Source of the DNA: a bacterium | Lineage (GTDB): Bacteria; UBA10199; 2-02-FULL-44-16; JAAZCA01 | Assembly: GCA_963674695.2 (NCBI GenBank) | Contig: CAXXGI010000003.1 | Span: 896,001 to 960,000, forward strand | DNA: 64,000 nt | Direction of reading: 5' to 3' | Shown here: piece after piece, positions 1-21,371 of the stretch | How the letters are laid out: each line of letters begins with the position of its first letter | Position numbering within the stretch: position 1 is the first letter of the stretch | Notes under the pieces: generated by a model | What the model was told of the DNA's origin: nothing | What the model saw: only the letters and a program-made list of their open reading frames with translations | The model's database searches: none | Program-made: the position numbers and the translations under genes

Positions 1-434
1 ATGAAGGCGAAGAACATCCCGATGAGCAGATAGGCACAGATACTCCCAACGATGCGATCGGCGACGGCACGGTCGGAGATGAGCACATCACGCATGATCG
101 AGTGAATGGCGATGAACACGAACGCGGCGTAGGCAAAGGCCGTGACGATGAGGCTCCCCTCGATGGTCTCGATCGGAATGCCGGGTATGGCCCAGAGAAA
201 GCCGCCGATCACCGCCGCCGCCCCACAGATGATCGCGAATACCTTCGGCCGCCGCCGTTTGCGAATGGCGTGGATGACCGAACCGAAGACGGCAAACATA
301 CAGATGACAAAGAGGATATAGAGAACCGGATTCTGCTCCATGAACGTGGCCAGAACGAGCAAGACCACCTGCGCGGCGAGGATACTCCAATACCGATAGC
401 GATGGGAACTCCGTTCGGACATATCAGGCATCAT
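1..434 (-). CDS. Membrane protein, probable potassium/ion channel family (5' part; runs off the window edge)
   Basis: Not in the ORF track because it is truncated. Hand translation from ATG 434 (alternatives 431, 422) is open to position 1: MMPDMSERSSHRYRYWSILAAQVVLLVLATFMEQNPVLYILFVICMFAVFGSVIHAI...ISDRAVADRIVGSICAYLLIGMFFAF. Several hydrophobic helices; D-x-I-x-G-x-I-C-x-Y-L-L-x-G-x-x-F is typical of the region before the pore in small ion-channel-family proteins. Overlaps the stop of the upstream receiver gene. Confidence 0.65.
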   Translation of the reverse strand, partial: MMPDMSERSSHRYRYWSILAAQVVLLVLATFMEQNPVLYILFVICMFAVFGSVIHAIRKRRRPKVFAIICGAAAVIGGFLWAIPGIPIETIEGSLIVTAFAYAAFVFIAIHSIMRDVLISDRAVADRIVGSICAYLLIGMFFAF

Positions 435-822
435 CCCGAAACTTGAGGTAATCGCCGCGCATGACCTTTTCGACCCCCTCGATGAGCTCGTCCTTGCCGA
501 AGGGCTTGTAGAGGTAGATCTCAATCCCGCCGGCGCTCAGAAAACGATTGAGCCGCTGCGCGGAGGGAGAGGCCGAGATCGCCACGATGCGCGCATGCGG
601 CTTTGCCTCCTTGATCTTCTCGCACGCCTCAGCGCCGTCCATCTGCGGCATGATCAGGTCCATGAGAATGACATCGTAGTCCTTTTCCGCAACGCGCGTG
701 ACGGCTTCCTCGCCGGAAGAGGCCGCCTCGACCTCATACCCCGCATCGGTGAGGACAAGCTTGACCCCATCACAGACGCTCGGCTCGTCATCGACAACTA
801 AAATGGTCTTTTTCTCCGCCAT
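424..822 (-). CDS. Single-domain response regulator (CheY-like receiver)
   Basis: VVDDE acidic pocket, LMDLIMP phospho-Asp, AISA, LYKPF; no output domain. Confidence 0.92.
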   Translation of the reverse strand: MAEKKTILVVDDEPSVCDGVKLVLTDAGYEVEAASSGEEAVTRVAEKDYDVILMDLIMPQMDGAEACEKIKEAKPHARIVAISASPSAQRLNRFLSAGGIEIYLYKPFGKDELIEGVEKVMRGDYLKFRDDA

Positions 823-917
823 CTGGCCTCCTGTTGAGAATCATACCACAAATACTGTCATCTCGATATCCCGTTTGCGCCCCTTTTGCAATCCCCATTA
901 TGCATGTGGATACATTT

Positions 918-1895
918 CTATCCCGCATACCGGGGCGACCGACCCTGCTCCTCCAAAAGCGCATTGATTTCTCGCTTGAGCTCGATGATGCGCATCTCTC
1001 GACCGATCGCCATATGGTTGACCATTTCGATATCCTTGGTCTTTTGTTCAAACGCCTCCTGCGCCTCATGTTCCCGGGTGATATCGATCACAATCCCCTG
1101 ATAATGCGTCACCACCCCGGACGGATCGCGCCGAATCCAGGTGCGATCATCGATCCAACGCAGCTGTCCGTCTTGTGTCAGAATCCGATAGACCTGGGAG
1201 AAGTCTCGATCACCGGAATCCGTATGTTTTCGCACATCATCGCCCACGTGTTCCCGATCATCCGGATGAATCACATCGACGTAGGAGATGCGTCCCGACA
1301 GAAAATCATCGGGTTCATACCCAAACTGCCGCACGTTCTCGGTGACATATTCAACAGGCCATCCCTCGGCCGCGCGCCAGAGAAATGCCACCGCGGGACT
1401 GTTCACGACAATGAACTCCAACTTCTCTCGCCGCTCGCTCTCGCGCTGTAATCGATCCTGGATCTGCTTGATCTCCGTCAGATCCACGATGATCCCCCGC
1501 AGACCGATGATCTTTCCATTGCGCTCAATCGGATTGGACGAGATCATGACGGGAAACGTTTCCCCGTCCTTGCGCTGGGCGAGATAGGAATCGGGTTTTC
1601 GCAGCTCTCCCGAGAAGACGCGTTTGATGTTTTCCTCCCCGCGCGCCCGCTCTGCGGGAGCGAGCATCTGAACGGCGTTCACCCCGCGAGCAAAATCGTC
1701 TTCACTATACCCAAAAACCGTGTAGGCGTTTCTGTTGACGAACGTCAGTCGCCCCGTCGCATCCATCTCGAAGACGACTTGCGGCAGAAGGTCGGCAAGA
1801 TCGTGAAAACGACGCTCGCTCTCGGCATGGACGCGACCTGCCTGCACCTCGTTCGACGACGCCCGTGATTTCGCTGAATGATCTTCACCCCTCAT
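918..1895 (-). CDS. Two-PAS sensor protein without kinase domain, C-terminal coiled-coil tail
   Basis: Two PAS/PAC repeats (RKDGETFPV...DLTE; IHPDDR...DITRE); ends NHMAIGREMRIIELKREINALLEEQGRSPRY. Confidence 0.88.
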   Translation of the reverse strand: MRGEDHSAKSRASSNEVQAGRVHAESERRFHDLADLLPQVVFEMDATGRLTFVNRNAYTVFGYSEDDFARGVNAVQMLAPAERARGEENIKRVFSGELRKPDSYLAQRKDGETFPVMISSNPIERNGKIIGLRGIIVDLTEIKQIQDRLQRESERREKLEFIVVNSPAVAFLWRAAEGWPVEYVTENVRQFGYEPDDFLSGRISYVDVIHPDDREHVGDDVRKHTDSGDRDFSQVYRILTQDGQLRWIDDRTWIRRDPSGVVTHYQGIVIDITREHEAQEAFEQKTKDIEMVNHMAIGREMRIIELKREINALLEEQGRSPRYAG

Positions 1896-4800
1896 CGCTC
1901 ACCTCCACGTCACGGCCGCCGACAAGCGGCAGGATGACCGTAAACGTGCTCCCTTGGCCTTGCTCGCTCTTCACCTCGATGCGTCCGCCGTAGCGCTCGG
2001 TGATATCGCGCGCGATGGGCAGGCCCAGCCCCACGCCGCGACGATCCAGGCGCGTGCTGTAGAACGGCTCGAAGAGGCGATCCATCACGTCAGGGGCGAT
2101 ACCCTCGCCCGTGTCGGTGATGGCCACTGCAATCTCCTCTCCGTTCATTCGTGCGACGATGGTCAGATCTCCCCCCTGCGGCATGGCATCGACGGCATTG
2201 TTGACGATGTTCAAAAAGATCTGGTCCAGCTCGCCGACAATAGCCTCCTTGACGATGGGCTCATTCGGCCGTTCAAAGAGAACCTTCACCTGCTGCTGAT
2301 CGCACTGAAAGACGATCGCCTTGGCGATCCGATCGAGCATACTGCCGAAATCGATCGATACCTGATGGAATTCGCCCCAACGGGAGATCCCGGCCAGCGA
2401 GAGCATCCCGTCGATGATGTCGCGCGTCGAAATGAGCGAGGCCTTGGCCCGTTGCAGCAGCGCGGTCGCCTTGGCGTCGGAGGTAATGCGCGCGTTGGCC
2501 GCCTCCACATGCAGGAGCGCGCCGCAGATGGGGCTGGAGAGCTGATGGGCCACGCCCGCGCCCAGACGCCCCATCGCCGCAAGTTTGGAGGAGGCGAAGA
2601 GATCGGCGCGCGCCTCATCGAGTTCCTTCGTGCGCGCCTCGACGAGTCCGGCCATCTCGTTTGCATAGCGTTGGAGCTGCTCCGCCCCCAGGACCTCCTC
2701 GGTCACATCGACCCACTGGCAGACGACGTTGGTGAGCACCCCCTCGGCGTTCACGATCGGAAACATCGACACATCGATATGCATATCACGTGCACCGGAA
2801 AAATCGGCATGCGCGATGCGAGTTCCCGCCCAGAACATCCGAAACCGAACCGGCTCATGTTTCTCCATCACGCGCTGCACGAGCGGCATCAGCCCCTGCT
2901 GAATCAGGTTCTCGTCCTTACAGACGTTGTACCGTCCGATGAGCTGCGCATCAGTCAGGCCCGCGCTCTCGCGCAGGGCGCGATTGGAACGGGTCATCGT
3001 CCCCTTCTCATCCGAGACCCACATGGCAAATGGACTCTCATCCATGATCCGTTTGAGAAAGGACTCCGATGCCTTCAGCATCTCCTCTGCCCGTTTGCGG
3101 TCGGTGATGTCACGTGCCACCGCCAACATATGCGGCTGACCCCGATATTCATACGCGGAGCCATACACCTCAATCGGAAAGTATTCGCCTCCCTTTCTCA
3201 CATCGATCGACTCCGACTTAAAGCTCTCGCCCTTCAGAATCGCCTCACGGAAACGCGCAAATACGCCCCGACAATCCGGATGAACGATATTCGTTCCGGA
3301 GAGACCGATCAATGCATCATAAGAATAGCCATACATGACACAAGCAGCCGGATTGGCCTCGCAAATCACCCCATCCATATCGAAGATCAAAACCGCATCG
3401 CGAGCGGATTCAAAGATGCCTCGATATTGTTTTTCGCTCTCGCGCAGGGACTGCTCTACCCGTTTGCGCCTGGTGATGTCTTCGACCACAGCAACAAAGT
3501 AGTCCGGTTCTCCCCGCCCATCGCGAATGAGAGAGACGGTCAGGTTGATCCAGACGATCGAGCCGTCTTTGCGGAAATAGCGTTTCTCCATCGCGTAGGT
3601 CTCGATCGTGCCGGCGATCATCTGCCGCACATACGCCAGATCGGTTTCCAAATCATCGGGATGGGTGATATCCTGAAACGTCTTCCCGATCAGCTCGTCC
3701 TGTGCATATCCGACAATATCGCAGATTTTCTGATTGACCTTCATCCAGCGACCGTCGAGCGCCACATGCGCAACCCCGACCGCCGCCTGCTCGAACGTCC
3801 CGCGGAAACGCGCCTCACTCTCGCGCACGCTTGACAAAAGGCGATCGCGCTCATCGATCATGCGCGCCTGGGAGATGTTGGCGAAGCTCAGCGAAGAGAG
3901 CATATGGGAGAGCTTCGCATAGAGGGCCATGATCCGTTCGACGCGTTCATGGCTCCATCGCGGCACGCGGTGAAGCGCCTCAAGATAGGCCTTCTCATCA
4001 AAGCCGTATTGCTGCGCCTGCCGGCGAAAGAGCGCCTCATCGAGCACTTCGTCATCGAAGAAGAATTGTCCCAGAAAGAGGTTTCCGAGATGTTTTCCAC
4101 CGACGACGATGGGAGTGACCATGTCCCACATGTTGTTCTTGCAGTGGTAGAGCTTGAACGTCCCCGGCTCGACCCCGTGGGAGAGCTCGGTGTCGCTCTC
4201 CAGGCAATGCCTTCTCGTCTCGGGATGAACCCGGTGAAACTGCGCACAGATATCCTGCCACCCGACGGAGACCAGGACCCTTCCCTCCATATCCAGGAGC
4301 GCCATGCCGGCACCCGTCACCCGATAGAAATCCTCCATCAGCTTCTGCACAACCACGACATCCATCACATCGCGGAGCGAGAGTTCCCCGATATCCCCCT
4401 CCGGGGCGAGGAGGGCGTCGAGTTTCCGCTGCACTCGCCCCTCGCTCTCGCGCAGGGACTGCTCCGCACGCTTGCGCTCAGTCACATCATCGTAGATGGC
4501 GACGATCTCGCCGGTAGGGAGTTTGTAGACAAAGTTCTCGCGCCAACCGATTTCGCGCGCGTCCTGATAGAGGTGCACCGGGAACTCTTCCGACACGCCC
4601 GTTCGCCAGACACGCTCGAAGACCTCGATGAGACCGAATGGAACCACTCCGGGGAAGACCTCGCGCACTTCACGCCCGATGACCTCCTTGCGCGCGATGC
4701 CGTCCACACGCTCGGCGGCCTCGTTGAACTCCCGGAAGACGAATCGCCTGCCCTCATCCTGCACCTCATAGACGGCCACGCACCCGCTCATGTGACGCAC

Positions 4801-5067
4801 CAACTCCCGATAGCGCTCCTCACTCTCGGTAAGGACGGCCTTGACACGACTGCGCTGTTCTATCGCCAGGACGATCAGGATGCTCGGCACCACATAGAGG
4901 ACGATCGCCAGGAGCCGAACGACCGCGCACGGAGCTGCTATCTGCAAGAAGAGGTAGTCGCTGAATTGACCGCTGAAGAAATGGGAACCGATAAACGCCT
5001 GAAGGAGCCAGAAGGCCGCCACCGGCGCGATCAGGATCAGGATGATTCTTTTGGTATCACGATGCAT
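1885..5067 (-). CDS. Membrane-bound PAS + PocR-domain sensor histidine kinase
   Basis: Two N-terminal TM helices, four PAS domains, PocR domain (GWQDICAQFHRVHPETRRHC...CKNNMWDMVTPIVVGGKHLGNLFLGQFF), H-box AHQLSSP, N-box NIVNNAVDA, DTGEG, FEPFYST, GVGLGL. Confidence 0.92.
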   Translation of the reverse strand: MHRDTKRIILILIAPVAAFWLLQAFIGSHFFSGQFSDYLFLQIAAPCAVVRLLAIVLYVVPSILIVLAIEQRSRVKAVLTESEERYRELVRHMSGCVAVYEVQDEGRRFVFREFNEAAERVDGIARKEVIGREVREVFPGVVPFGLIEVFERVWRTGVSEEFPVHLYQDAREIGWRENFVYKLPTGEIVAIYDDVTERKRAEQSLRESEGRVQRKLDALLAPEGDIGELSLRDVMDVVVVQKLMEDFYRVTGAGMALLDMEGRVLVSVGWQDICAQFHRVHPETRRHCLESDTELSHGVEPGTFKLYHCKNNMWDMVTPIVVGGKHLGNLFLGQFFFDDEVLDEALFRRQAQQYGFDEKAYLEALHRVPRWSHERVERIMALYAKLSHMLSSLSFANISQARMIDERDRLLSSVRESEARFRGTFEQAAVGVAHVALDGRWMKVNQKICDIVGYAQDELIGKTFQDITHPDDLETDLAYVRQMIAGTIETYAMEKRYFRKDGSIVWINLTVSLIRDGRGEPDYFVAVVEDITRRKRVEQSLRESEKQYRGIFESARDAVLIFDMDGVICEANPAACVMYGYSYDALIGLSGTNIVHPDCRGVFARFREAILKGESFKSESIDVRKGGEYFPIEVYGSAYEYRGQPHMLAVARDITDRKRAEEMLKASESFLKRIMDESPFAMWVSDEKGTMTRSNRALRESAGLTDAQLIGRYNVCKDENLIQQGLMPLVQRVMEKHEPVRFRMFWAGTRIAHADFSGARDMHIDVSMFPIVNAEGVLTNVVCQWVDVTEEVLGAEQLQRYANEMAGLVEARTKELDEARADLFASSKLAAMGRLGAGVAHQLSSPICGALLHVEAANARITSDAKATALLQRAKASLISTRDIIDGMLSLAGISRWGEFHQVSIDFGSMLDRIAKAIVFQCDQQQVKVLFERPNEPIVKEAIVGELDQIFLNIVNNAVDAMPQGGDLTIVARMNGEEIAVAITDTGEGIAPDVMDRLFEPFYSTRLDRRGVGLGLPIARDITERYGGRIEVKSEQGQGSTFTVILPLVGGRDVEVSDEG

Positions 5068-5086
5068 AATAAGATGCCCCCTGTCC

Positions 5087-6826
5087 TCACTTCACCGTCG
5101 GTTCCTCCAGTGGAAGACGAACGGTAAAAACGGTCCCCTTGCCCAGCTCGCTGGCCACCTCGATCGTACCCTGATAGCGATCGATGATCTGCCTGACGAG
5201 CGGCAAACCGATACCGACGCCATGTTCCTCCAAGCGTGTCGTGAAGAACGGTTCATAGAGCCGAGGCATATGCTCGGGCGCAATACCACAGCCGGTATCG
5301 GCGATGCGGATCAGAATGTGCTCGCCCTCGAGACGGCTCTCAACGAGCAGCAGGCCGCCGTCCTTCATCGCATCGATGGCGTTGTTGATGAGGTTCAAAA
5401 AGACCTGACCCAGCTCGCCGATGTTCGTCTCGATCAAGGGCAGCTCCGGGTCCAGATCGGTGCGAATCTCGATGCTGCGCTTGGTGCAATCGAGCTTGTT
5501 GAGGTCAAGGATGTGCTGCAGCCGTGCGTTGAGATCGGCGCGTCTTCTCCCCGGTTTTTCATGCCGATCGACCACCGCGAGTGAAAGCATGCAATCGAGG
5601 ACTTCGCGCATATCGCTGAGCGATTTCCGTACGCGCACGAGCATCCCATGCGCCTCGCCCCTGTCCTGGCAGTGATCGAGCAGGGTATCCATGTGCAGCA
5701 TCGCGCTCGTGAGCGGCGAACCCAGTTGATGGGCGATACCCGCGCCCATGCGCCCCATCGCCGCGAGTTTCGACTGCTGAAAGAGGTCAGCACGGGCACT
5801 ATCGCGTTCATTGGTGCGTTCGACCACCTCTGTCTCGAGGTTTTCAGCATATCCCCGGAGCTGTGCCTGCGCCTTTCTGCGTTCCGTCACGTCCACGGCG
5901 ATCTCGAAGCGCACATCGCGCCCGTCCGGCCATGTGATGATGCGATCGAAGATGTCGAAGTCGCGCTGCAGGTTCTCGTTGTGAAACTCCCAGCGATAAG
6001 GTTTGCCCTTCTCCTTGAGGATGATGTGGTTGGTGCAAAAGGAACAGGGAGCATCGAGATTCTGGAACTCGCGAAAACACTTCTTCCCGACCGGATCATG
6101 CCCCAAGAGCTCGCGGAAATATCGATTCACGAAGAGGACCTCGTTGTTCACCGGATCGGTCACATAGACGATCTCTTCAAACCCGTCGAAGATCGAGAGC
6201 AACTGCGCGCGCTCAAACGCCAACGCCTCCTGCGTCCGCATCGTTTCCGTGATATCGAGGGTCGTCTCAACGACATTCTGCACGCGTCCCTGCGCATCCT
6301 GAATCGGATACCCGCAGACGCGCCAGATGCGACCGTCGGGCGTGCGCATCTCCGCCTCATGAAACTGCCCGTCCGCGAAGGCTTTGACGACCGGGCACCC
6401 CTCGCAGGGCGTCTCCCGTCCATGCCACACGTCGAAGCAATGTCGCCCCTTCATCACCTCGGGGGAGAAACCCACCGATTCTGCTGCCGCCCGATTCGTC
6501 CAGATGATGTGCAAGCCGGGTTCGTGCAGGATGACCAGTTCATGGACGCTATCGAGGACCGTCCCCATGCGCCGTTCGCTCTCGGAGAGCCGTTCCTCGG
6601 CTTTTTGGCGGGAACCCATCAACGAAACCGTCATCATCCCGAAGAGCGTGAGGATCACCATCCCCATTGCCCGGTGATAAAGGACATGTGCCGGCGCATC
6701 GAGGATGAGGAGATCGAGAAAGGAGAACCGTTCAAAGAAAACCCCCTCAAAGAGGGCGTCGAAGACCCAATAGAGCAGCACCGCAACGAACGTGAGCAAC
6801 ATGATCCGCTTGCGATCCCATTTCAT
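5087..6826 (-). CDS. Membrane-bound PAS sensor histidine kinase with Cys-rich PAS domains
   Basis: Two TM helices; PAS motifs CFDVWHGRETPCEGC and CFREFQNLDAPCSFC; H-box AHQLGSP; NLINNAIDA, DTGCG, GVGIGL. Confidence 0.92.
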   Translation of the reverse strand: MKWDRKRIMLLTFVAVLLYWVFDALFEGVFFERFSFLDLLILDAPAHVLYHRAMGMVILTLFGMMTVSLMGSRQKAEERLSESERRMGTVLDSVHELVILHEPGLHIIWTNRAAAESVGFSPEVMKGRHCFDVWHGRETPCEGCPVVKAFADGQFHEAEMRTPDGRIWRVCGYPIQDAQGRVQNVVETTLDITETMRTQEALAFERAQLLSIFDGFEEIVYVTDPVNNEVLFVNRYFRELLGHDPVGKKCFREFQNLDAPCSFCTNHIILKEKGKPYRWEFHNENLQRDFDIFDRIITWPDGRDVRFEIAVDVTERRKAQAQLRGYAENLETEVVERTNERDSARADLFQQSKLAAMGRMGAGIAHQLGSPLTSAMLHMDTLLDHCQDRGEAHGMLVRVRKSLSDMREVLDCMLSLAVVDRHEKPGRRRADLNARLQHILDLNKLDCTKRSIEIRTDLDPELPLIETNIGELGQVFLNLINNAIDAMKDGGLLLVESRLEGEHILIRIADTGCGIAPEHMPRLYEPFFTTRLEEHGVGIGLPLVRQIIDRYQGTIEVASELGKGTVFTVRLPLEEPTVK

Positions 6827-8706
6827 GAAGGGTCTCCCTTCGCATCGAGGGGCAATGCGACCTCGAAGAGAGTGCCTCGTCCCACGTCGCTGTCGACCTG
6901 CATCTTTCCGTGATAACGCTCAACGATCTGCTGTGCGATATAGAGGCCCAAACCCAAACCCCGCCCATCCGAACGCGTCGTGAAGAAGGGCTCGAAGATC
7001 TTGTCCAGATCCTCCGGCAGAATGCCGCCGCCGGTATCCTGCACGCGCACCAGGATAGTGCCCCCCTTCAGACGCGACTCGACCCCCAGCGCACCCCCAG
7101 CGTCCATGACATCGATCGCATTATTGATGAGATTTAAGAAAACCTGATCCAGCTCCCCGCGCACCGCGGAAAGGGGCGGAAGGTTCTCATCCAACAGGAT
7201 GCGCACGGTAATATCGCGATTGTGGCACTCGAGGTTCGCCAAATCGACGATATGCGCCAACACATCGTTGATCTGCACGGGCTCGCGCTTGCGCTCATCG
7301 CGCGTCCCCGACATGGCCAACGACAGCATGCTCTGGATCACGTCGCGCATGTCGATGAACGTGCGCTGAATATCCATAAGCTGTTTGAGCGTCTTCGGCT
7401 GCTGCTGGAGCGCATCGGCCATGGTGTCGACGAGCAGGAGCCCGCCGCTGATGGGGCTAATGAGCTGATGCGCAATGCCGACGCTCATGCGCCCCATCGC
7501 CGCAATCTTTGAGGCGGAGAAGAGTTCCGCACGAATGCGGTCGAGCTCCTTCGTACGACTCTCGACCATGCGTTCGAGATCCTTCGAATAGGCTTCGAGC
7601 TGTCGCCTCGCTTCCATGCGCTCGGTGATATCGCGCACATAGACGAGCACTATCTTCTCATCGTCGATAGAGAGCAAACGCGTATTGACCTCAGTGGGAA
7701 AGACCGTTCCGTCCCGGCGCACCCCCTTGGCCTCGAGGAAGACGCGCCCCTGCCTGTTGTGCTCCTCGATGATTTCACTCAGATGCTCGGCGATCTCAGC
7801 CGGCACGAGATCGCCGACCGTCATCCGCTGGAGTTCCTCCTTGGAATATCCATAAAGATGCGTTGCGGCTCCGTTACAATCGAGCACCCTTCCGTCGAGC
7901 GTCTCGAGAAAGATGGCATCGCTCGAGGCTTCAAACAATGTGCGATAGCGCAGCTCGCTCTCACGCAGCGTCGCCTCCCCCTCTTTGCGACTGGTGATAT
8001 CGCGTGAGATTCCCATGACGGCGATAACGGCACCCCCATGCCGCAGCGGCACCAAACGGGTATCGAGGCAGATGGCCTTTCCCGGCATGTCGATCCAACC
8101 CTCATGCGAAACCGACAGACCACGCTCGAAAACCTCGCGGATATGGCGAGATTGTCGCTCGGCTGTTTTCTCGGAAAAGAGATTCGTCAATCCGTTCCCG
8201 ACTATGCCGGAGGAAGAAAGATGCATCGCCTCCATCCCCCGGTGGTTCACGTATTGAACACGCATATCACGGCCGATGATGAAGATAAAATCGGGAGAGG
8301 ACTCCGCCAACGTTCGATAGCGTTCCTCGCTCTCATGTTCGAGCGCACGCGCGTGCCCAATGTCATGAAAATAACGCCCGGCAAACAACACGCCCGCGAA
8401 GAGGATGAACGCGATCATGAGGGCAAGCGGCTCGGAGACCACAGGCGCCTGAAGAGAGACCGTCGCCACCGAAGCGATGAGACCAGCGAGCTCACGAACG
8501 GGAAGAAAGAGGATGACGAGCGCCACCAGCAACCACCAGATGCGCCGCTGGTCAAGACGCACCTGAACGACGGCAAACGCGGTAGCGATGGCCTGAAGCG
8601 CAACACTCAAATACATCATAGCAGGGGCATGCACGTTCCTTGCTCCATCTCTCCGCGCTCCCGCGAACCGTCCGTGCGCGGCATCAAGCCGTGTTCTGCC
8701 GTCCAT
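6823..8706 (-). CDS. Membrane-bound PAS sensor histidine kinase
   Basis: Three TM helices, two PAS domains, H-box AHQLISP, NLINNAID, DTGGG, FEPFFTT, GLGLGL. True start may be GTG 8634 or ATG 8619. Confidence 0.9.
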   Translation of the reverse strand: MDGRTRLDAAHGRFAGARRDGARNVHAPAMMYLSVALQAIATAFAVVQVRLDQRRIWWLLVALVILFLPVRELAGLIASVATVSLQAPVVSEPLALMIAFILFAGVLFAGRYFHDIGHARALEHESEERYRTLAESSPDFIFIIGRDMRVQYVNHRGMEAMHLSSSGIVGNGLTNLFSEKTAERQSRHIREVFERGLSVSHEGWIDMPGKAICLDTRLVPLRHGGAVIAVMGISRDITSRKEGEATLRESELRYRTLFEASSDAIFLETLDGRVLDCNGAATHLYGYSKEELQRMTVGDLVPAEIAEHLSEIIEEHNRQGRVFLEAKGVRRDGTVFPTEVNTRLLSIDDEKIVLVYVRDITERMEARRQLEAYSKDLERMVESRTKELDRIRAELFSASKIAAMGRMSVGIAHQLISPISGGLLLVDTMADALQQQPKTLKQLMDIQRTFIDMRDVIQSMLSLAMSGTRDERKREPVQINDVLAHIVDLANLECHNRDITVRILLDENLPPLSAVRGELDQVFLNLINNAIDVMDAGGALGVESRLKGGTILVRVQDTGGGILPEDLDKIFEPFFTTRSDGRGLGLGLYIAQQIVERYHGKMQVDSDVGRGTLFEVALPLDAKGDPS

Positions 8707-8755
8707 CGTCGGTGTGCGTCTTCATCATCGACATATTCGCCTCATTCCAAATCCA

Positions 8756-10465
8756 CTAGGTCATCGAGAGCTCATCCGGATCACGGGCGAGATCCCCCTC
8801 ATCGGAGGACTCTTCAGGCCCTTCTCGGGAGAGCGTAAAGGCAAAGATCGAACCCTTTCCCGGATCGCTCTCCACCCGAACCGTCCCGCCATGGCGCTCG
8901 ACAATCTCTTTGACGATCGCCAGCCCCAGACCAAGCCCCTGGGTCCCCGGAGCATATTTGCGTTCGACCTGCCGAAAGCGCTCGAAGATCACGCTCTGAT
9001 ACTCACGCGGAATACCGATGCCGGTATCGGAAACCCGAACCTCGATCGTCTGCACCGTATCGGAGAGTTCAAGAACAATACGCCCCCCCTCGCTCGAATA
9101 TTTGATGGCGTTGTCCAGAAGATTTCCGATTGCCTGATGGATCTTACGGGGGTCACAGCGAAGTTCCGGGTTCTTGAGCTCTCCGATCACTTCGAAGTGC
9201 CGATTGTATTCGGCCATCATCGGTTCGTAGAGCGTGCGCACACCATCGACGATATCCAGGATCGAACACGCCTCTGCCTCCAGGATAAAACGCGCCTTCC
9301 GCAAGCGCGAATACTCGAGCAATCCGTCGATGAGCGCTGCCAAACGATTGGACGCTGCATCTGCCCGCTGCAGACCACGAGTCATCCGCTCGCCGAATTC
9401 ACCCATACTGCCGATGATGGCATTCGAGAGAAAGAGCTTGATGAGCGCCAAGGGTGTTCGCAACTCATGGGAGACCGTCGTGATCAACTCATCCTTGGCG
9501 CGATCGAGTTCACGTTGACGAGTAACATCCGTCACGGTCATCAAGGCGATGGCCGCATGCCGTTCTCCGTCGAGCAAGGATGCCGACACCTGCAGAATGC
9601 GCAGCGGCGCCTTACGGGCAACGAACTCCGCCGTATAGGAATCGCCCGACTCAAACACAACACGCATAAACTCTTCCTGCGGAAACCAACTGCTGGCGCA
9701 CACATGCTCCCATCTCAGCGCCTCCCCTTCCGGTCCATCGAACATCATCTGCGCGGCCTCGTTGGAAAGCAGCACATCTCCCGTCTCATCGATAAGCACC
9801 AACCCCTCCGACATGGCGGCAATGGAGCTGGCGAGCTTTGCACGTTCTTCGTCGACGGCAATGCGAGACTGTTCCACATCGTCGAGCATGGAGAGCACAG
9901 CGCGGTTGCGATCATGGAGCGCACCGATCGCCACTTCGAGTTTTTCATTCGCCTCGCGATAGCCCTGTTCGGCCTGCAGGCGTGCGTTGACCTCCTCCTG
10001 CAAATGATGAATCGCCTCAGAGAGCTCGGTCGTGCGCCCTGCTATCTCCTGTTCCAATTCCATCTGCTGTCGTTCGATCTCCTGTTGTGCCAATCGACGC
10101 TCGGTCACATTCCAGAAGACACCCAGCACTCCGACAGCGGCACCCGTCTCGTCCTTCACCGGAAACTTCATCGTCTGCACCCAGGCTTCTTTACCGTCGA
10201 TGACATATTCCTCTTCGATCATCTTGATCATCCCCGAAGCCATCACCGCGCGGTCATCGGCGCGATATTTTTCGACCAGCTCGGGAGCAAATAAATCGGC
10301 ATCGGTCTTTCCAACGACCTCATCGGGACGCCGCTTGAGATCGCGCGCGAATGCATCATTGCAGCGCCGATAGACCAATTTGGCGTCCTTGAAAAACACC
10401 CGCTGCGGCAAAAAATTGTTCAACGCCGAACGCCAGACCTGCTCGACCTGTTCTTCCTTCATCAT
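8756..10465 (-). CDS. Cytoplasmic PAS sensor histidine kinase (canonical HisKA)
   Basis: PAS, coiled coil containing RNRAVLSMLDDVEQSR, second PAS, SHELRTPL, NLLDNAIKY, DTGIG, FERFRQV, GLGLGL. Confidence 0.93.
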   Translation of the reverse strand: MMKEEQVEQVWRSALNNFLPQRVFFKDAKLVYRRCNDAFARDLKRRPDEVVGKTDADLFAPELVEKYRADDRAVMASGMIKMIEEEYVIDGKEAWVQTMKFPVKDETGAAVGVLGVFWNVTERRLAQQEIERQQMELEQEIAGRTTELSEAIHHLQEEVNARLQAEQGYREANEKLEVAIGALHDRNRAVLSMLDDVEQSRIAVDEERAKLASSIAAMSEGLVLIDETGDVLLSNEAAQMMFDGPEGEALRWEHVCASSWFPQEEFMRVVFESGDSYTAEFVARKAPLRILQVSASLLDGERHAAIALMTVTDVTRQRELDRAKDELITTVSHELRTPLALIKLFLSNAIIGSMGEFGERMTRGLQRADAASNRLAALIDGLLEYSRLRKARFILEAEACSILDIVDGVRTLYEPMMAEYNRHFEVIGELKNPELRCDPRKIHQAIGNLLDNAIKYSSEGGRIVLELSDTVQTIEVRVSDTGIGIPREYQSVIFERFRQVERKYAPGTQGLGLGLAIVKEIVERHGGTVRVESDPGKGSIFAFTLSREGPEESSDEGDLARDPDELSMT

Positions 10466-12051
10466 CCCTCCACCTGCTTCTTCAATTCCTCGATCACACG
10501 CCTCTGCTCGTCCAATTCCTTTGAGAGCTGACCCACCCGCTCCTCGCTCTCGGCAAGGACGTGACGAAGGCGAACGCCTTCCGTCACGTCCGTATCCACC
10601 CCGCGATAGCCGAGCAACGTATCCGACCTCCCCAGGATCGGCACCCCATTCGTCTCGAGATAGACGATCGAGCCATCCCGATGAACGTTCCGGTTGAGAT
10701 ACCGATGAATCGGCTCGCGGCGCTCAAATGCCTCAAACGCCCCTCCCCGAAGGGAATCACGCGCATCCGCATCGAAGAATTCATAGAACGCGCGTTTGCC
10801 GACAAGTTCTTCCGGACGATATCCAAGGATGCGCTCGACGACCGCGTTGGAATAGGTATAGACCCCACGCGCATCGACCTCCCAGATCCACTCTTCGGCA
10901 CATTCAGCAACCTCTTCGAAACGCCGCTTACTCTCCCGCAGCGCTTCATCGATGCGGCGTTGATCGGTGATATCGCGCGCTATCGAGAGAACCGCAGGAA
11001 CCCCTTCATATTCGATGAGACTCACCGAGAGCTCAATTGGAATAACCTCGCCCCCCTTGGTGCGATGCTCCGCCTCAAAAACCGCCCATCCTTTTTTTCG
11101 CAGTTCCTCCACGCGGGCATCGTATAGCGCAGCGTCGGTCGATGTATCGAGCTGCGCCGAAGTCATATTCATCAACTCTTCATGAGAGTAACCCAACTGT
11201 TCACACGCTACGCGATTCACCTCGAGCATACGACCGTTCAACTCATTGATGAAAAAGGCATCGCTGGCATGATCGAATACTGCTCGGAATGTGCGCTCCG
11301 CCCCTTTGAGCTGGAGATCAGCGCGTTTACGGGAAAAGAGATCCGGAATCTCATACGCCTTCACGCGCGCAGCCAGCTCCGGCGCCCCATGCACATAGTC
11401 ACGAATGCGCGCTTCGATCCTATCGGACGACGCCATAATGAACCGACAACACTCATCTCCGCGGGCCCGGCACAGGATCTCGCTGGCCACAAGCGACATT
11501 CCAAAACTCTCTGAGGACCAACCGGAGGAGTAGCCCGCATTCATGATACAGATGGGATATTCCGCATGGCGACTCTGGCGCACCCACGCATCCGCCTCGA
11601 ACGAATAGGGATGATCGTAAATGATACAGAACTCTTCACCCGGCGTGAGGTTCGATTCGGGATGGATGTCGACCAGGGCCCAGCCGCAATAGGCGAAATG
11701 CACCGGCCCCGCCGAAAGACGCGAGACAGGATCGCGAAGATTCATCCGGTCGTGAAAGCGGCGGGCATCGGCCCGGCCGATCGCATGCGCCAGGTCAAAG
11801 AGCATGTTGCGCGCAAAGGCATCGGCCTGCGATTTCTGCGCCGTATCGAAGAGCGACTCGATCAGATCAAAGAACTCGACCGCAAGGGACGCCGCTCGCA
11901 CCAGAACGTAGCGCTCGCCAGCGATCTCGATCATTCCTTTTTCGGGATGTCGGGAAAAACCCTCAAAATAGGATGAGACGACTTCTTTGGCCTTGGCCGA
12001 TGCCGCCTCCATCCCAACGGGCACAAACACGGTCTTTGGCTGCATCCGCAT
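10462..12051 (-). CDS. XylR_N/V4R domain + two PAS domains, no output domain
   Basis: GMIEIAGERYVLVRA...SFEA...PICIMNAGYSSGWSSESFG...EILCRARGDECCRF (V4R Cys/Glu pattern), two PAS, short terminal coiled coil. Confidence 0.88.
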   Translation of the reverse strand: MRMQPKTVFVPVGMEAASAKAKEVVSSYFEGFSRHPEKGMIEIAGERYVLVRAASLAVEFFDLIESLFDTAQKSQADAFARNMLFDLAHAIGRADARRFHDRMNLRDPVSRLSAGPVHFAYCGWALVDIHPESNLTPGEEFCIIYDHPYSFEADAWVRQSRHAEYPICIMNAGYSSGWSSESFGMSLVASEILCRARGDECCRFIMASSDRIEARIRDYVHGAPELAARVKAYEIPDLFSRKRADLQLKGAERTFRAVFDHASDAFFINELNGRMLEVNRVACEQLGYSHEELMNMTSAQLDTSTDAALYDARVEELRKKGWAVFEAEHRTKGGEVIPIELSVSLIEYEGVPAVLSIARDITDQRRIDEALRESKRRFEEVAECAEEWIWEVDARGVYTYSNAVVERILGYRPEELVGKRAFYEFFDADARDSLRGGAFEAFERREPIHRYLNRNVHRDGSIVYLETNGVPILGRSDTLLGYRGVDTDVTEGVRLRHVLAESEERVGQLSKELDEQRRVIEELKKQVEG

Positions 12052-12063
12052 CCCCCTGTCACC

Positions 12064-14061
12064 TCATGCAATAGAAAATTCATCCGGAGAATCTTCCGAC
12101 GACTCAGTCGGCCCTTCACGCGGAAGCGTCACGACAAAGGCACTGCCCTGACCCGGCTCGCTCTCAAGACGGATCGTTCCATCGTGGCGATGGGCAATCT
12201 CTTTGCAGATGGCCAGGCCCAGACCCAACCCCTTTGCCCCCGGACCGTACTCGCGTCCAACCTGTTGAAACCGTTCAAAGACCGTCTCCTGATATTCGGC
12301 GGGAACGCCGATACCGTTATCGGCGACACGCAGTTCGACCCAATCCGGGCTATCGCTGACGGAGAGAATAACACTCCCCCCTTCCGCCGTAAATTTTATC
12401 GCGTTATCCAGGAGATTGACCAGCAGCTGATGCAGACGACGCGGATCGGCGCGGAAATGAGCATCGCTGATCTCTTGACGCACCTGAAACGACCTATTGT
12501 TCTGTCGCATGATGGGACGATAGACCTCGCTGATCGCCGACACCAGGTCCATGAGCGAGGTCTGTTCGAGACGGAGCTGAAAACCACCGCGGCTCAACCG
12601 GGAATATTCCAGGAGTTCTTCGATCAAGATCTCCAATCGTTTCACGCTCTTGTTAGCACGAATCATGCCATGCTGCAGACGATCGCCCAATTTCCCCATC
12701 ACCCCCGCATCGGCATTGGAGAAAAAAAGTTTGATCAGCGCCAACGGCGTGCGCAGCTCGTGCGAAACCGTCGAGATGAGGTCGTCCTTGGCGCGATCGA
12801 GCTCGCGCACATGCGTCACATCGATGAGCGTGATCAGGGCACCACCGATGCGCTCGTCATTGACGATCGGAATGACGCTCAGGCGCAGGATCATGAGCGG
12901 CGCGCGCTCGATGACCAGATCGGTTGCCAGTGGCTCGACACGCTCAAACGCTGATTCGAGAACCACTTCGTTTGGAAACCAGTCGCAGTCATCCAAAACG
13001 GCTCGTGTAATCGCCACCTCACCCTTGAGCCCCAACATGCGCACCGCCGCCGGGTTTGACAACACCACCTCGCCGTGCCTGTCGAGCAGGACGATCCCCT
13101 CCATCATCACGGAGGCGGCCGTCTGAAACCGCTGCCGTTCCGCCTCGATCTCACGACGGGTTTCCTCCACATCCTCGAGCATGGACAGCACCGCCCGACT
13201 GCGCTCGTCGAGTGCACTCACCGACTTTTCGATCTCCTGCGCTGCGTGTTTGGCCGCGTACTCCGCCTGCTTCCGCGCGGTGACATCCACTCCCATTCCA
13301 ATGAGATAGGGCGCGCCATCCATCATCGTTCGCTTTCCGGTAAGGAGATAGGTCCGTCGTTCACCGGAGAATAGACGCACATCGGCCTCGACGGAGGCTT
13401 CCCCCTTTTCAAACACTTCTCCTATTCGTTCGCGAATGAGTTCGCGATCTTCCTCAACAACGATGGAGAGCGGCCCAACGGAAAAAAGCTCCTCTCGGGA
13501 CAAGCCCGTCACCGATTCCATGGTGTGATTGAAACGAACAAAGGCACCCTGCTCATCGATGACGTAGGTCATGCCCGGCATATGCTCGAAGATCGATTGC
13601 GCAAATGATTGTTCGCGCAGCATCGCCCGTTGCACCTCGCACTGCCGAATAAAGCGCGCCAGGTGCAAAGCGACGGCATCGATCAGGTGGCGCTCTTCCT
13701 CTAAGAAGGGACCTTCGAAAAACTGCGGGCGCGCTTCGGTATAGAAGACCTCGACGCGACCGACCTCCTCGCCGGAAACGCGCACAGGTGCTCCCATGCT
13801 CCAGGACCCCTCACAAAACCCCGGCGACTCATAAACGGCGTCTCCAATCCGGATGCGCGCCGTCGCCACCTCCGGATACTGCCACGCCGGGGGAAGAAGC
13901 TCGACGACGCGCTGACATATCGACGAGGCATCGCCCTCAGCCACATTGATGATTGTGGAGATCTCATACAGACATTGCAGCCCCTTGAGACGCTCCTCGG
14001 TCGGGTCGCGCGGAACTCCAACCCCCTTCTGTCTGTGCCCCTTATCGTTCGACATCATCAC
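12064..14061 (-). CDS. GAF-like + PAS sensor histidine kinase (canonical HisKA)
   Basis: LQCLYEIS...LPPAWQYPE...GPFLEEE GAF-like module, PAS, RSRAVLSMLEDVEETR linker, PAS, SHELRTPL, NLLDNAIKF, DNGIG, GLGLGL. Confidence 0.93.
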   Translation of the reverse strand: MMMSNDKGHRQKGVGVPRDPTEERLKGLQCLYEISTIINVAEGDASSICQRVVELLPPAWQYPEVATARIRIGDAVYESPGFCEGSWSMGAPVRVSGEEVGRVEVFYTEARPQFFEGPFLEEERHLIDAVALHLARFIRQCEVQRAMLREQSFAQSIFEHMPGMTYVIDEQGAFVRFNHTMESVTGLSREELFSVGPLSIVVEEDRELIRERIGEVFEKGEASVEADVRLFSGERRTYLLTGKRTMMDGAPYLIGMGVDVTARKQAEYAAKHAAQEIEKSVSALDERSRAVLSMLEDVEETRREIEAERQRFQTAASVMMEGIVLLDRHGEVVLSNPAAVRMLGLKGEVAITRAVLDDCDWFPNEVVLESAFERVEPLATDLVIERAPLMILRLSVIPIVNDERIGGALITLIDVTHVRELDRAKDDLISTVSHELRTPLALIKLFFSNADAGVMGKLGDRLQHGMIRANKSVKRLEILIEELLEYSRLSRGGFQLRLEQTSLMDLVSAISEVYRPIMRQNNRSFQVRQEISDAHFRADPRRLHQLLVNLLDNAIKFTAEGGSVILSVSDSPDWVELRVADNGIGVPAEYQETVFERFQQVGREYGPGAKGLGLGLAICKEIAHRHDGTIRLESEPGQGSAFVVTLPREGPTESSEDSPDEFSIA

Positions 14062-14429
14062 CCCCGAGCAGAACGGATCATCTCCAACAGCTCATCCATC
14101 TCGAAGGGTTTGCGAATGAAAGGCGCATCGCCGATAAAATCGCGTTCCTCCTTGGAGAGCAGCCTACCGAAGGCGGTCACGATGATGACGGGGAGTTTTT
14201 TCAGCGCCTCGTCCGCCTGCATCTCTTCATAGACGCGAAAGCCGTCCTTGCCCGGCATCATGATATCGAGCAGAACGCCGTCGAGCTGCTGTTCGCGCAT
14301 GATGGCCAACCCGGCATCCCCATCGTTGGCCTCGATCACCTCGTACCCCTCGAACTCGAGGCGGGTGCGCAGACTGTCGACAAAATCGCGTTCATCATCG
14401 ATGACCAGCAGCTTCTTCATATCCGGCAT
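14058..14429 (-). CDS. Single-domain response regulator
   Basis: VIDDE, LLDIMMPGKDG, IVTA, IRKPF. Confidence 0.93.
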   Translation of the reverse strand: MPDMKKLLVIDDERDFVDSLRTRLEFEGYEVIEANDGDAGLAIMREQQLDGVLLDIMMPGKDGFRVYEEMQADEALKKLPVIIVTAFGRLLSKEERDFIGDAPFIRKPFEMDELLEMIRSARG

Positions 14430-14466
14430 GGGATCCTCCTGCGAAAAAGGGTTATGGCAATAGGCA

Positions 14467-16854
14467 TCACACGGTAAAACGCCTGGGTTTGCCCTGGTCT
14501 TCCAACAGCCGATTGATCTCGTCCTTGAGCTGGATGATGCGCTGCTCGCGGCCGACCATGAACTGGTTGAGGCGCTCGATGTAGGTCATCTTGTTCTTGA
14601 GCTCCTCTTCGGCGCGATGCTCTTTGGTCACGTCGCGCCCGATCGCCGAAACGCCGACGATGGCGCCGCGTTCGTCCCGGATGGCCGAGAAGGTCAGCGA
14701 TACGGTGATGACCACCCCATCCTTGCGCCGACGCTCGGTGATGAAGTGATCGATCGCACGCCCCTGACGCAGCTTTCCCAACAGCCCCTGGAGTTCGTCT
14801 TCGCGCCCCTCCGGAAGGAGGATCGAGATGGAACGGCCGAGGACCTCCTCGGCGCTGTAGCCGTAGATGCGCTCGGCTCCCTTGTTCCAACTGGTGATCG
14901 TGCCGTCGAGCGTCTTGCCGATGATGGCGTCGCTGGAGCTGGCGACGATCGCGGAGAGCCGTCGCATCTCCAGCTCCCACCGCTTGCGTTCGGTGATGTC
15001 GGTGATCGCGCCGATGATCCCGGCGATGTGCCCCTGGGCATCGGCGAAGGTCGATTTGTGAAAGAGGACATCGCGGACCGATCCGCCGTCGCCGACGACC
15101 CGGAACTCGTACTCCTGCACGCCGGGGTCGGCGAAGAGCGCCTCGTCCATGACGTGGTAACGGTCGGCCTCCTCTTTGGGGGCAATATCATAGACCGTCT
15201 TGCCGACGATCTCGTCGCGTGAACGACCGAAGAACTCCTCGAACTTTCGGTTGCACCCGACATAGCGATACTCGGTATCCTTGTAGAAGACCGGCAGGGG
15301 AACGGCATCGAGCATCGTCCGTATGAACAGGAGCTGATCGGCCAGGAAATCCTCGATCTGTTTCTGATCGGTGATATCCTGAATCGCCCCCCACACGCGC
15401 ACGGTGCGACCGTCGCGGCGGTCGGCCTGGCCCATCGCGCGCACCCAGCGATGGTTTCCCGCCGCAGTCACGAAGGGCAGCTTCAGATCGTAGGGCAACC
15501 CCTCGTCGATGGCCGCGGTCAGGGCCGCCTCGATCAACGGACGCGCCTCCTCGGGAAAGAAAGAGAGCCCGTCGTCGACGGTGGGATTGAAATCAGGACC
15601 CACCTCGTGAAGGCGATAGGTCTCATCGGTCCAGACCTGCTCTCGGGTATCCACGTCGAAGGCCCAACCGCCGATATGCGCCATCCGCCCGGTCTGGGCC
15701 AGAAGCGCCTGGCTCTGCGCCAGCTCCGCACGGGCCGATTCCTGCACGCTGACGTCGCGCACCGAGGCGATGATGAGCGCTCCCGCTGCGGTCTGAAAGG
15801 AAGAGAGAATGATCTCGACGGGAAAGATCGTGCCATCCTTGCGCCGATGTACGGTCTCGATCATATGGCGTTGTCCATCCTCGCGCGACGACGATGTGAT
15901 GACGCGATCGAACTCCGCTTCGAGCTCTTCGCGTGTCAGGAGCGGCTTGATGTCCTGCGGTCCCATCCGCAGCAGCTCATCGTGGCTGTAGCCCGTGCTC
16001 ACGCAAGCCGTTGCGTTCATATCGACAAACCGCATCGTCTTGCGGTCGATAAGGAAGAGGCTGTCGGCCGATCCATCGAGGGCGGCGCGAAAACGCTTCA
16101 GATCATCCTCTAACCTCCGCGCCTCGGTGCTGTCCTCCTTGATGGCGATGAAGTGCTCGATGCGCCCGGATTGACCCTTGACCGGCGAGATAAGCGCACT
16201 CTCCCAGTAGAGCGTGCCGTCCTTGCGCTTATTATGAAATTCGCCCCGCCACTCGCGCCCCGCGTTGATCGTCTCCCAGAGGAGATGGTATTCCTCGGGC
16301 GGAAGCTCACCAGATTTGAGGATCCGCGGATTCTGTCCGACGGCCTCCTCTGCCGTATACCCTGTGACTTCAACAAATTTGCGATTGACGTATTCGATGG
16401 TGCCGGTGGGATCGGTGACGACGACGATGGCCGGCCCCTGCTCGATGGCGTGCGCCAACAGCTGCAGGCGCCCCTCGACCACACGGCGCGTACCGCGCTC
16501 GCCCTGATATTTCTCGACGAGCGACCAGAGCACGCGCGCCATATTACCGGCGATGAGGTCGCACGCCTCGGGTTTTTCGCGCTGCAACTGCGCATGCACC
16601 CCCTCAACGCCCGTCACGTCGATGATGATATCGATGGGAATGGTGCCAAAGAAGGGAGCCCAACTCGCCTCGGTGCGAATGCCCTTGTCGCGGGCAAATG
16701 CGAGCGCCGGCGCATCCGGGCGGGTGTCAACGATGCCGGCGATGTGCACATCGGCGGTGCGGGAAAAGATGTCGAGCATGGCTCGGCCGCCCTGGCCGCC
16801 GCCGACGATGAGAAGATGGATGCGATCCCCCATGGTCCCCCCTTGTCGCATCAA
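14467..16854 (-). CDS. Rossmann-fold N-terminal domain + five PAS domains, no kinase domain, coiled-coil tail
   Basis: N-terminal LLIVGGGQGG (GxGxxG)...IDIIIDVTG; five PAS/PAC units; ends ERLNQFMVGREQRIIQLKDEINRLLEDQGKPRRF. Start may be MGDRI, a few codons in. Confidence 0.88.
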   Translation of the reverse strand: MMRQGGTMGDRIHLLIVGGGQGGRAMLDIFSRTADVHIAGIVDTRPDAPALAFARDKGIRTEASWAPFFGTIPIDIIIDVTGVEGVHAQLQREKPEACDLIAGNMARVLWSLVEKYQGERGTRRVVEGRLQLLAHAIEQGPAIVVVTDPTGTIEYVNRKFVEVTGYTAEEAVGQNPRILKSGELPPEEYHLLWETINAGREWRGEFHNKRKDGTLYWESALISPVKGQSGRIEHFIAIKEDSTEARRLEDDLKRFRAALDGSADSLFLIDRKTMRFVDMNATACVSTGYSHDELLRMGPQDIKPLLTREELEAEFDRVITSSSREDGQRHMIETVHRRKDGTIFPVEIILSSFQTAAGALIIASVRDVSVQESARAELAQSQALLAQTGRMAHIGGWAFDVDTREQVWTDETYRLHEVGPDFNPTVDDGLSFFPEEARPLIEAALTAAIDEGLPYDLKLPFVTAAGNHRWVRAMGQADRRDGRTVRVWGAIQDITDQKQIEDFLADQLLFIRTMLDAVPLPVFYKDTEYRYVGCNRKFEEFFGRSRDEIVGKTVYDIAPKEEADRYHVMDEALFADPGVQEYEFRVVGDGGSVRDVLFHKSTFADAQGHIAGIIGAITDITERKRWELEMRRLSAIVASSSDAIIGKTLDGTITSWNKGAERIYGYSAEEVLGRSISILLPEGREDELQGLLGKLRQGRAIDHFITERRRKDGVVITVSLTFSAIRDERGAIVGVSAIGRDVTKEHRAEEELKNKMTYIERLNQFMVGREQRIIQLKDEINRLLEDQGKPRRFTV

Positions 16855-20230: not shown

Positions 20231-20291
20231 CTCTCCCCTCCTTTTTTTGTGAGCTTTACTTATGGTGAATCAAGGCGAAGAAGTCAAATCG

Positions 20292-20372
20292 CCCTCCCCC
20301 CCCCTCACTTGACAATAATGTAAAGAAGGAAAGGAGCCGGAAAGGTCATTATTTTGGCTTTAAAGACAATTT
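20292..20372. repeat. Imperfect direct repeat, copy 1 (copy 2 at ~22979-23059)
   Basis: C-run, then CTCACTTGACAATAAT(G/A)TAAA...GAAAGG(A)GCCGGAAAGG...TTAT in both copies. Confidence 0.8.
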
Positions 20373-21360: not shown

Positions 21361-21371
21361 CGTGTGTCTCA

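Follow-up and report, generated by a model that had tools for sequence, protein, structure and literature searches.

A conserved C-terminal helix of sensor-only proteins and a stalk helix of downstream kinases: a candidate junction for signaling in trans

Results

Genes and conserved helices at the locus

The stretch of bacterial DNA analyzed here, referred to as the window, comprises 64,000 nucleotides (nt), positions 896,001 to 960,000 of contig CAXXGI010000003.1 (assembly GCA_963674695.2), and carries a minus-strand run of ten genes at window positions 424-16854. Two of these genes encode sensor-only proteins, tail795 and tail325, that end in nearly the same helix, which we call the tail. 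Two others encode histidine kinases, HK665 and HK569, that share a different conserved element, the ED helix, ahead of their last PAS domain. An earlier note on this DNA had proposed that the two elements are complementary halves of a helical bundle, by which interchangeable sensor proteins could dock onto kinases and control them in trans. The genes and elements concerned are as follows, with protein lengths in amino acids (aa).

14467..16854, minus strand: tail795, sensor-only PAS protein; 795-aa open reading frame (ORF), first in transcription order
14470..14634, minus strand: tail helix of tail795, last 55 residues; profile match E 3.5e-30
12064..14061, minus strand: HK665, histidine kinase, 665 aa; N-terminal region, PAS, ED helix, PAS, HisKA (SHELRTP), HATPase_c
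13108..13263, minus strand: ED helix of HK665, core RSRAVLSMLEDVEETR at 13156-13203; profile E 9.3e-13
8756..10465, minus strand: HK569, histidine kinase, 569 aa; PAS, ~85-aa coiled coil carrying the ED helix, PAS, HisKA (SHELRTP), HATPase_c
9815..9970, minus strand: ED helix of HK569, core RNRAVLSMLDDVEQSR at 9863-9910; profile E 1.3e-12
918-1895, minus strand: tail325, sensor-only, 325 aa; two PAS domains and tail; start overlaps the stop of the HK1060 kinase gene by 11 nt
921..1085, minus strand: tail helix of tail325; profile match E 7.1e-29

The tail795 protein ends in ...LNQFMVGREQRIIQLKDEINRLLEDQGKPRRFTV, and tail325 ends in ...VNHMAIGREMRIIELKREINALLEEQGRSPRYAG. Both tails and both kinase linkers are present on the minus strand within a few bases of where the earlier note had placed them. 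For the tails, the location was right but the ends had been set 11-22 nt too generously; from the conserved N to the stop, the segment is ~102 nt in both genes (918-1019 and 14467-14568). The description of the two tail proteins as large PAS proteins holds for tail795 but not for tail325, with its two PAS domains. HK569 and HK665 are paralogs (43% identity overall, rising far above this once the linker is reached), and therefore their common linker alone proves little.

The tail is a C-terminal output helix

The 3.03-Mb host genome was searched with a profile (A1) that was built from five tails and has the tail795 tail as its first row, as does a further profile, A4. Seven tail proteins were found at E<=4.5e-19, and all seven matches stop 1-15 residues short of the C-terminus; two weaker matches (E 0.04 and 0.5) are unrelated. 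The seven tails are carried by unrelated sensors, which include PAS arrays, a membrane sensor with PAS, a single PAS, MEDS with PAS, DUF1638 with a region that has no Pfam match, and a Cys-rich PAS. These observations bear on the possibility that the likeness of the tails and linkers is a local coincidence produced by recent duplication in the gene cluster. The paralogy of the two kinases, which align from linker to C-terminus, is what such a duplication would produce. However, the sensor arrays of tail795 and tail325 are unrelated, five more tails with different sensors occur in the genome, and both motifs recur across phyla, which refutes this reading and leaves it with almost no probability.

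A profile search of 1.84 billion representative sequences matched 11,421 representative clusters with E<=1e-3, of which 2,077 reached E<=1e-10; together with the seven matches in the host genome, this shows the tail to be more than a chance resemblance. The tail is a ~45-residue helix with the consensus N-x4-G-R-E-x-R-[IM]-[IL]-E-L-K-x-E-[VI]-N-x-L-L...G-x-P-x-[KR]-[YF], and 56 aligned tails from many phyla all share its residues G, R, E, R, K and N. Its hydrophobic residues follow the a/d pattern of coiled-coil heptads. By our heptad reading, the invariant Arg of G-R-E would occupy a core 'd' position, and the E/K and R/E pairs would fall at e/g positions, where they would be self-complementary only when antiparallel. 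AlphaFold2 modeled the last PAS domain and tail of tail325 with a pLDDT of 94 (95-97 over the tail stretch), and in this model the tail is one continuous 44-residue helix, residues 273-316, followed by 9 non-helical residues.

The tail nearly always sits at the very end of the chain. A strict regular expression (regex) for the tail matched 130 of the best 150 matches, 114 of which end no more than 30 residues from the C-terminus, and in just 7 of the best 150 does the best match lie more than 100 residues from the protein end. Likewise, the tail is within 38 residues of the stop in 71 of the 80 genomic loci described below. A second tail search gave 198 matches at E<=1e-5; among the 120 matches listed, the tail follows PAS, GAF, MEDS, HAMP, dCache, CheB-CheR-PAS_10 or REC alone. 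The HAMP domain ahead of the tail in P0229 is genuine, and the tails themselves gave no match to HAMP (PF00672) at E<=10.

Some of the listed architectures deserve mention in their own right. In P0159, P0197, P0199, P0201, P0202 and P0260, CheB-CheR fusions with PAS_10 have the tail at their end. Proteins P0169, P0174, P0189, P0247 and P0253, each of ~185 residues, consist of a receiver domain and the tail alone. Judged from this layout, they could be response regulators with the tail as their output, in which case phosphorelays would be connected through them with ED-helix enzymes.

No Pfam model covers the tail or ED segments at E<=10, and an NCBIfam scan of both at E<=1 likewise returned nothing beyond coiled-coil noise. 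An ESM Atlas look-up of the same segments gave scores below 0.9 throughout, and PDB sequences contained no convincing tail match at E<=10. The best of these, a 20-residue stretch of a human protein (EFRIRDLNDEINKLLREKGH; PDB 1x4t chain A, E 0.05 against the tail core), is probably a chance match. The earlier note had named a truncated HisKA remnant as a competing account of the tail. This was rejected: the tail consensus contains no conserved His, and none of five tails examined matched a HisKA-family profile at E<=10. We conclude that the tail is an autonomous C-terminal output helix, which stands in place of an output domain on sensor-only proteins of many input types.

The ED helix heads the stalk of a transmitter

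The ED helix has the consensus R-x-A-A-L-[SN]-L-x-E-D-A, of which RAVLSML(E/D)DVE is the local version found in the window. It heads a coiled-coil stalk that leads into a PAS or GAF domain or, in other proteins, directly into the output part, either histidine kinase DHp helices or a GGDEF cyclase. Profile and loose regex alike match the ED helix of HK569 and HK665 only within the genome, which amounts to 2 of 18 kinases (17 H-box regex matches and HK627, which that regex missed). HK569 and HK665 had been described as the only kinases with a canonical SHELRTP box, which is correct for the window, but the genome has three more outside it; these lack the linker motif, and the ED helix is thus present in 2 of 5 SHELRTP kinases.

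Elsewhere, the proteins at loci L039 and L065 have no sensor domain and are composed of a coiled coil, ED helix, HisKA, HATPase and REC. Another sensor-less kinase (L092:2103-3008, genome G077) opens with two tandem ED motifs (...RAILNILEDF... and ...RATLNILEDI...), continues through a coiled coil directly into the kinase domains, and is encoded directly after a PAS-tail gene. The ED profiles are undersensitive, and visible ED helices were missed at L017, L020 and L023.

ED helices are encoded downstream of tails

One genome per species was scanned, yielding 154 confirmed tail loci, of which 80 from more than 15 phyla were kept. In these 80 loci (1.18 Mb), ED helices were sought in every ORF of 100 aa or more from the six-frame translation. 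With the hidden Markov model (HMM) at E<=1e-2, matches were found in 31 loci: 30 follow the tail on its own strand (7 share its ORF, 20 are within 3 kb and 3 beyond), 0 are upstream, and 1 is on the other strand. A nine-residue regex, for which the background inside the same loci served as the control, gave 63 matches, and 59 of these, in 59 different loci, lie downstream on the same strand within 4.5 kb. The rest comprise 1 farther downstream, 1 on the opposite strand and 2 upstream of the last tail, both of which sit downstream of an earlier tail gene. A downstream same-strand ED helix was present in 57 of the 71 loci that have at least 1.5 kb of downstream sequence (binomial p 8e-30 against a null share of 0.26, the fraction of sequence in that position).

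Tail genes mostly overlap or abut the next gene, which across the 80 loci usually encodes the ED protein itself. The downstream ED proteins are HisKA, HisKA_2, HisKA_3 and HWE kinases and one GGDEF protein. Two tail genes are present in 12 of the 80 loci (L006, L007, L009, L013, L027, L047, L051, L055, L056, L060, L062 and L077), usually in tandem ahead of one ED protein and most commonly in Kiritimatiellota and Verrucomicrobiota; in Pontiella-type loci, the first tail reads GRERRTLELK and the second reads GREQRILELK.

Fusions of tails to ED helices

The earlier note stated that the two motif types also occur within single proteins of other bacteria. Such proteins do exist, although they are rare, and they contain in order a tail, a disordered linker and an ED helix. 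The linker after an internal tail is 25-60 residues long and rich in acidic residues and proline, and another module follows, which in 12 proteins scanned was PocR in 9 and a membrane CHASE unit in 2. Every PocR unit in those internal-tail proteins directly precedes an ED helix, as found with the profile. HisKA/HATPase or GGDEF domains occur in just 3 of 112 position-checked matches (P0208, P0242 and P0216), and in all three the tail is internal and a 40-60-aa acidic and proline-rich disordered stretch comes next. The two kinases of this trio have an ED helix downstream of the tail (RRAALNLLEDA and RRATLNLLEDA), and P0216 has a weak ED-like helix, ALNLALEA, after the tail (domain E 0.014).

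Because PocR so often comes after internal tails, we considered whether the tail binds PocR and set the idea aside: a further tail closes each PocR unit, and the ED helix that follows each PocR is the more general element. In HK1060, which has the sole PocR domain of the host genome, no ED helix comes after it. At L018:9467-12434, a tail-linker-PocR frame is broken inside PocR and resumes in another frame, followed by an ED helix; the cause is either a frameshift in a fused gene or a fault of the assembly.

Subtype covariation, co-occurrence and the fission reading

Tails and ED helices also vary together. Among 30 pairs, either adjacent or fused, RW..ATLGRE.RILELK tails are matched with ALLS..EDQ in 11 of 11 cases, and RFN..GRE tails are paired with AA[LM][NS]..[ED][DE]A in 19 of 19 (Fisher p 1.8e-8, with related genomes being non-independent). 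We estimate that the independent events are fewer than the 30 pairs, with ~8 and ~12 lineages in the two classes. The pair in the window, with LN tails and EDV helices, matches neither class exactly and may represent a third specificity class.

Co-occurrence was examined in 93 genomes of the window's phylum. The tail was found in 23 and the ED helix, by either profile, in 16; both were present in 13 genomes, the tail only in 10, the ED helix only in 3, and neither in 67 (Fisher p 1.7e-7, uncorrected for relatedness). The ED count depends on the profile, since A3 undercounted ED helices (9 genomes) relative to the wider A7 (13), and 16 is their union. In 12 of the 13 genomes with both elements, the ED match lies within 1.7 kb of a tail match on the same strand, the one exception being an assembly of 490 contigs. 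Three profile-negative genomes visibly encode ...AALNLMEDA... in the gene after the tail gene, and the tail-only class is therefore inflated. Farther afield, a single tail match and a single ED match, in neighboring genes, were found in each of two genomes, one of Bradyrhizobium (7.5 Mb) and one of Methylocystis (3.4 Mb).

The main rival explanation for these associations is that they are scars of gene fission. Multi-sensor kinases would have broken at a disordered linker, leaving the tail as a homodimerizing coiled-coil end and the ED helix as an N-terminal stalk cap; the two would be co-inherited with no contact between them, and the pieces would use other surfaces or act independently. The earlier note had likewise allowed that the tail is merely a homodimerizing end, which it may be. 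A stop or a disordered linker always follows the tail, and the gene after a tail gene mostly overlaps or adjoins it, as fission at a linker would leave them. ED helices also occur in genomes that lack tails and inside single-chain kinases, 5 of the 7 tail genes in the host genome are orphans, and the covariation could be generated by co-inheritance alone. However, six invariant residues in 56 sequences, a G and five polar ones (R, E, R, K and N), go far beyond what a dimerizing zipper needs. The tail sits on unrelated inputs, including bare REC and HAMP, which speaks for an autonomous module over a remnant of one ancestral kinase. The downstream partners span five output families of which the ED helix is the sole common element, and the sensor-less kinases at L039, L065 and L092 require input from elsewhere. 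We consider fission without contact an unlikely explanation.

Other genes of the window and alternative partners of the tail

The remaining six genes of the run are as follows.

14058..14429, minus strand: single-domain response regulator, 123 aa, between tail795 and HK665; its stop overlaps the HK665 start by 4 nt
10462..12051, minus strand: p529, sensor-only; XylR_N/V4R and two PAS domains, no output domain; its stop overlaps the HK569 start
6823-8706, minus strand: HK627, kinase with no ED helix
5087-6826, minus strand: HK579, kinase with no ED helix
1885-5067, minus strand: HK1060, kinase with a PocR domain and no ED helix
424..822, minus strand: single-domain response regulator, 132 aa, 95 nt downstream of tail325

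The two response regulators raise the alternative that the tail binds some other partner, either an adjacent single-domain response regulator or a general cellular factor, and that the ED helix is incidental. A receiver-only gene does follow each tail gene in the window, and the five tail genes elsewhere in the genome have unrelated surroundings, among them a transporter, corrinoid methyltransferase genes and FIST. In the 80 loci from other phyla, however, the next gene is usually that of the ED protein itself, and where genes intervene they never encode a receiver: those at L063 and L074 are ORFs with no Pfam match, and that at L032 encodes a phosphonate-binding protein. Moreover, the fusions join the tail to ED-bearing modules and not to REC. 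We therefore regard another partner as improbable.

The surroundings of two of the tail genes elsewhere in the genome are as follows. One, encoding a DUF1638-tail protein (L004:8795-11783; G000 C2), lies directly after genes for a B12-binding protein and a URO-D-like methyltransferase, and from this position its product may be a sensor connected with corrinoid methyl transfer. In the other (L005:7672-9506; G000 C3), a FIST_N/FIST_C gene overlaps the start of a Cys-rich PAS-tail gene by 4 nt.

The tail795 protein probably starts at 16833, with MGDRIHL, giving 788 aa, as in P0001 of the profile search. It consists of a ~120-aa N-terminal region with no Pfam match, PAS domains (4-5 Pfam stretches) and the C-terminal tail. 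The N-terminus (16480-16854; ...LLIVGGGQGGRAML...IAGIVD...) resembles the start of a dinucleotide-binding Rossmann fold and has no Pfam match at E<=0.01; judged by this resemblance, the region may be an unrecognized redox or nucleotide input domain. The p529 protein, from its domain content, may be another kind of trans-acting sensor. We considered its coiled-coil C-terminus (...EQRRVIEELKKQVEG) as a degenerate tail and left it uncounted, as its profile score is negative. HK627, HK579 and HK1060 are encoded consecutively (1885-8706), and the H-box that they have in common is unusual, reading G[VI]AHQLxSP instead of SHELRTP. The G+C fraction is 0.50-0.52 at window positions 20001-28000 and 0.57-0.62 in the rest of the window.

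Structure predictions for the tail and ED helix together

An AlphaFold2 monomer model of a fragment of the natural fusion at L091 has a helix, a low-confidence loop and a second helix, with a pTM of 0.60. The PDB shapes nearest to it are antiparallel hairpins such as the LSD1 tower, and none of them is a significant match. Such a hairpin is weakly consistent with pairing of the tail and the ED helix. A complex of two copies of the HK665 ED-linker and PAS domain (alignment A5) with two copies of the tail (A4) was predicted with a score of 0.02, against a mark of 0.32 to be reached; run with no controls, this prediction counts neither way. In terms of sequence, the E-D pair of the ED helix and its conserved Arg could answer the charged residues of the tail.

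Discussion

The claim that the two motif types belong together functionally is supported by their gene order (57 of 71 loci), their fusion in cis, their covariation in 30 pairs and their co-occurrence within the phylum. The earlier note had called for checks, by profiles, of genome and operon co-occurrence and of fusions in cis. The interpretation put forward in that note is, as a whole, partly supported. We favor, with moderate confidence, a reading in which the tail docks on the ED helix of a kinase stalk, so that the state of the sensor would be passed to the kinase in trans. We think it fairly likely, too, that the junction is a 2+2 antiparallel helical bundle.

In such a mechanism, the tail would act as a plug at the end of a sensor-only protein and the ED helix as a socket on the stalk of the transmitter. 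The two tail helices of a sensor dimer would pack antiparallel to the two ED helices of a transmitter dimer to form the 2+2 bundle, through which the conformational state of the sensor would reach the stalk and switch the output enzyme. In the window, tail795, the response regulator that follows it and HK665 would be the likeliest cognate set, and HK569 would be a second socket. The tail325 protein would be one more plug, as would the five tail proteins encoded elsewhere in the genome, and these would compete for, or converge on, the two sockets. The sole basis in this genome for regarding sensors as interchangeable is the count of seven tails to two ED helices, from which many-to-few wiring may be proposed.

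Several observations weigh against this docking model. The tail has no ED match in 10 of the 23 tail-bearing genomes of the phylum, the ED helix has no accompanying tail match in three genomes (G019, G075 and G080), and five of the seven tail genes in the host genome adjoin no kinase. The ED helix also lies deep within long multi-PAS kinases at L011, L026, L042 and L072. In the window itself, a response-regulator gene lies between tail795 and HK665, and a second one comes after tail325. As noted above, co-inheritance alone could generate the subtype covariation. The 80 loci were all retrieved by a single tail pattern, GRE[MQT]R[IM][IL][EQ][LM]K, and the nine-residue ED regex was devised post hoc, as the HMM missed many visible ED helices. 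Even with this regex, 14 of the 71 loci have no downstream ED helix, although at least 3 of these (L047, L059 and L085) have near-miss or HMM-detected ones. The L091 model, for its part, was made from a two-sequence alignment, and AlphaFold2 readily packs any two amphipathic helices.

A broader form of the docking model is that tail and ED helix form a universal modular junction, by which any tail-ended sensor (PAS, GAF, MEDS, Cache or phosphorylated REC) could dock non-covalently onto any ED transmitter. There would be at least two orthogonal classes of junction, RW/EDQ and RFN/EDA, and wiring would be combinatorial, with seven plugs and two sockets in the present genome and no fusion needed. 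We put this forward tentatively, judging its chances to be slightly short of even. That the transmitters would be histidine kinases of four families or a GGDEF cyclase is part of the same proposal and is offered with equal reserve.

Among signaling genes that defy interpretation, those for sensor-only PAS, GAF and REC proteins are some of the most frequent. If the docking model is true, a recognizable output helix with a recognizable target would assign thousands of such proteins (11,421 clusters) to kinases or cyclases, and it would explain how kinases that have no sensor domain receive their input. The tail and ED helix would also provide a natural, and possibly orthogonal, docking pair for synthetic sensor kinases.

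Comparison with known systems

Split histidine kinases consist of two polypeptides and are divided between the phospho-acceptor part and the ATP-binding part. The arrangement described here differs, in that HK569, HK665 and the downstream ED kinases have the HisKA-type DHp and HATPase_c domains in a single chain and the break falls between sensor and transmitter. Stand-alone sensors such as H-NOX proteins likewise act in trans on a kinase encoded by an adjacent gene. In that case, however, a globular surface of one sensor family makes the contact, whereas here one short helix is common to many sensor families. Searches of the literature for the motif strings, trans-acting PAS sensors and split kinases found neither motif described in open-access papers and bioRxiv; subscription journals may differ.

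The closest described element is the S-helix (PMC1592074; Anantharaman, Balaji and Aravind 2006). Passages of that paper describe a conserved coiled-coil helix of ~40 residues that is specific to signaling proteins and has been proposed to serve as a switch linking sensor to output. It is embedded between two globular domains of one polypeptide and has an unusual Arg at core position 'd', conserved polar flanking positions, and an E-R-T signature that occupies c, d and e in its central heptad. The tail resembles the S-helix, as these passages present it, in being a single coiled-coil helix of ~40 residues and, by heptad reading, in its Arg at 'd'. Unlike the S-helix, the tail has an invariant G-R-E and no E-R-T, and it is terminal or precedes a disordered linker rather than being embedded between globular domains. 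The ED helix is embedded between domains, as the S-helix is, but has neither E-R-T nor an equivalent. The same passages contain no description of the pairing of two different helices across two proteins (PMC1592074).

In function, the closest parallel is RsbT-RsbU (PMC12143880). There, a dimeric output enzyme is switched on through its helical linker by a separately encoded partner, and the authors propose an exchangeable linker toolkit that would serve phosphatases, cyclases and kinases. RsbT differs from the tail in being a globular kinase-like protein that binds the RsbU N-terminal domain and linker, whereas the surface proposed here would be a single terminal helix of a sensor and its target would be a distinct motif. 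If the docking model is true, the idea of a coiled-coil linker toolkit would extend from single chains to non-covalent assemblies.

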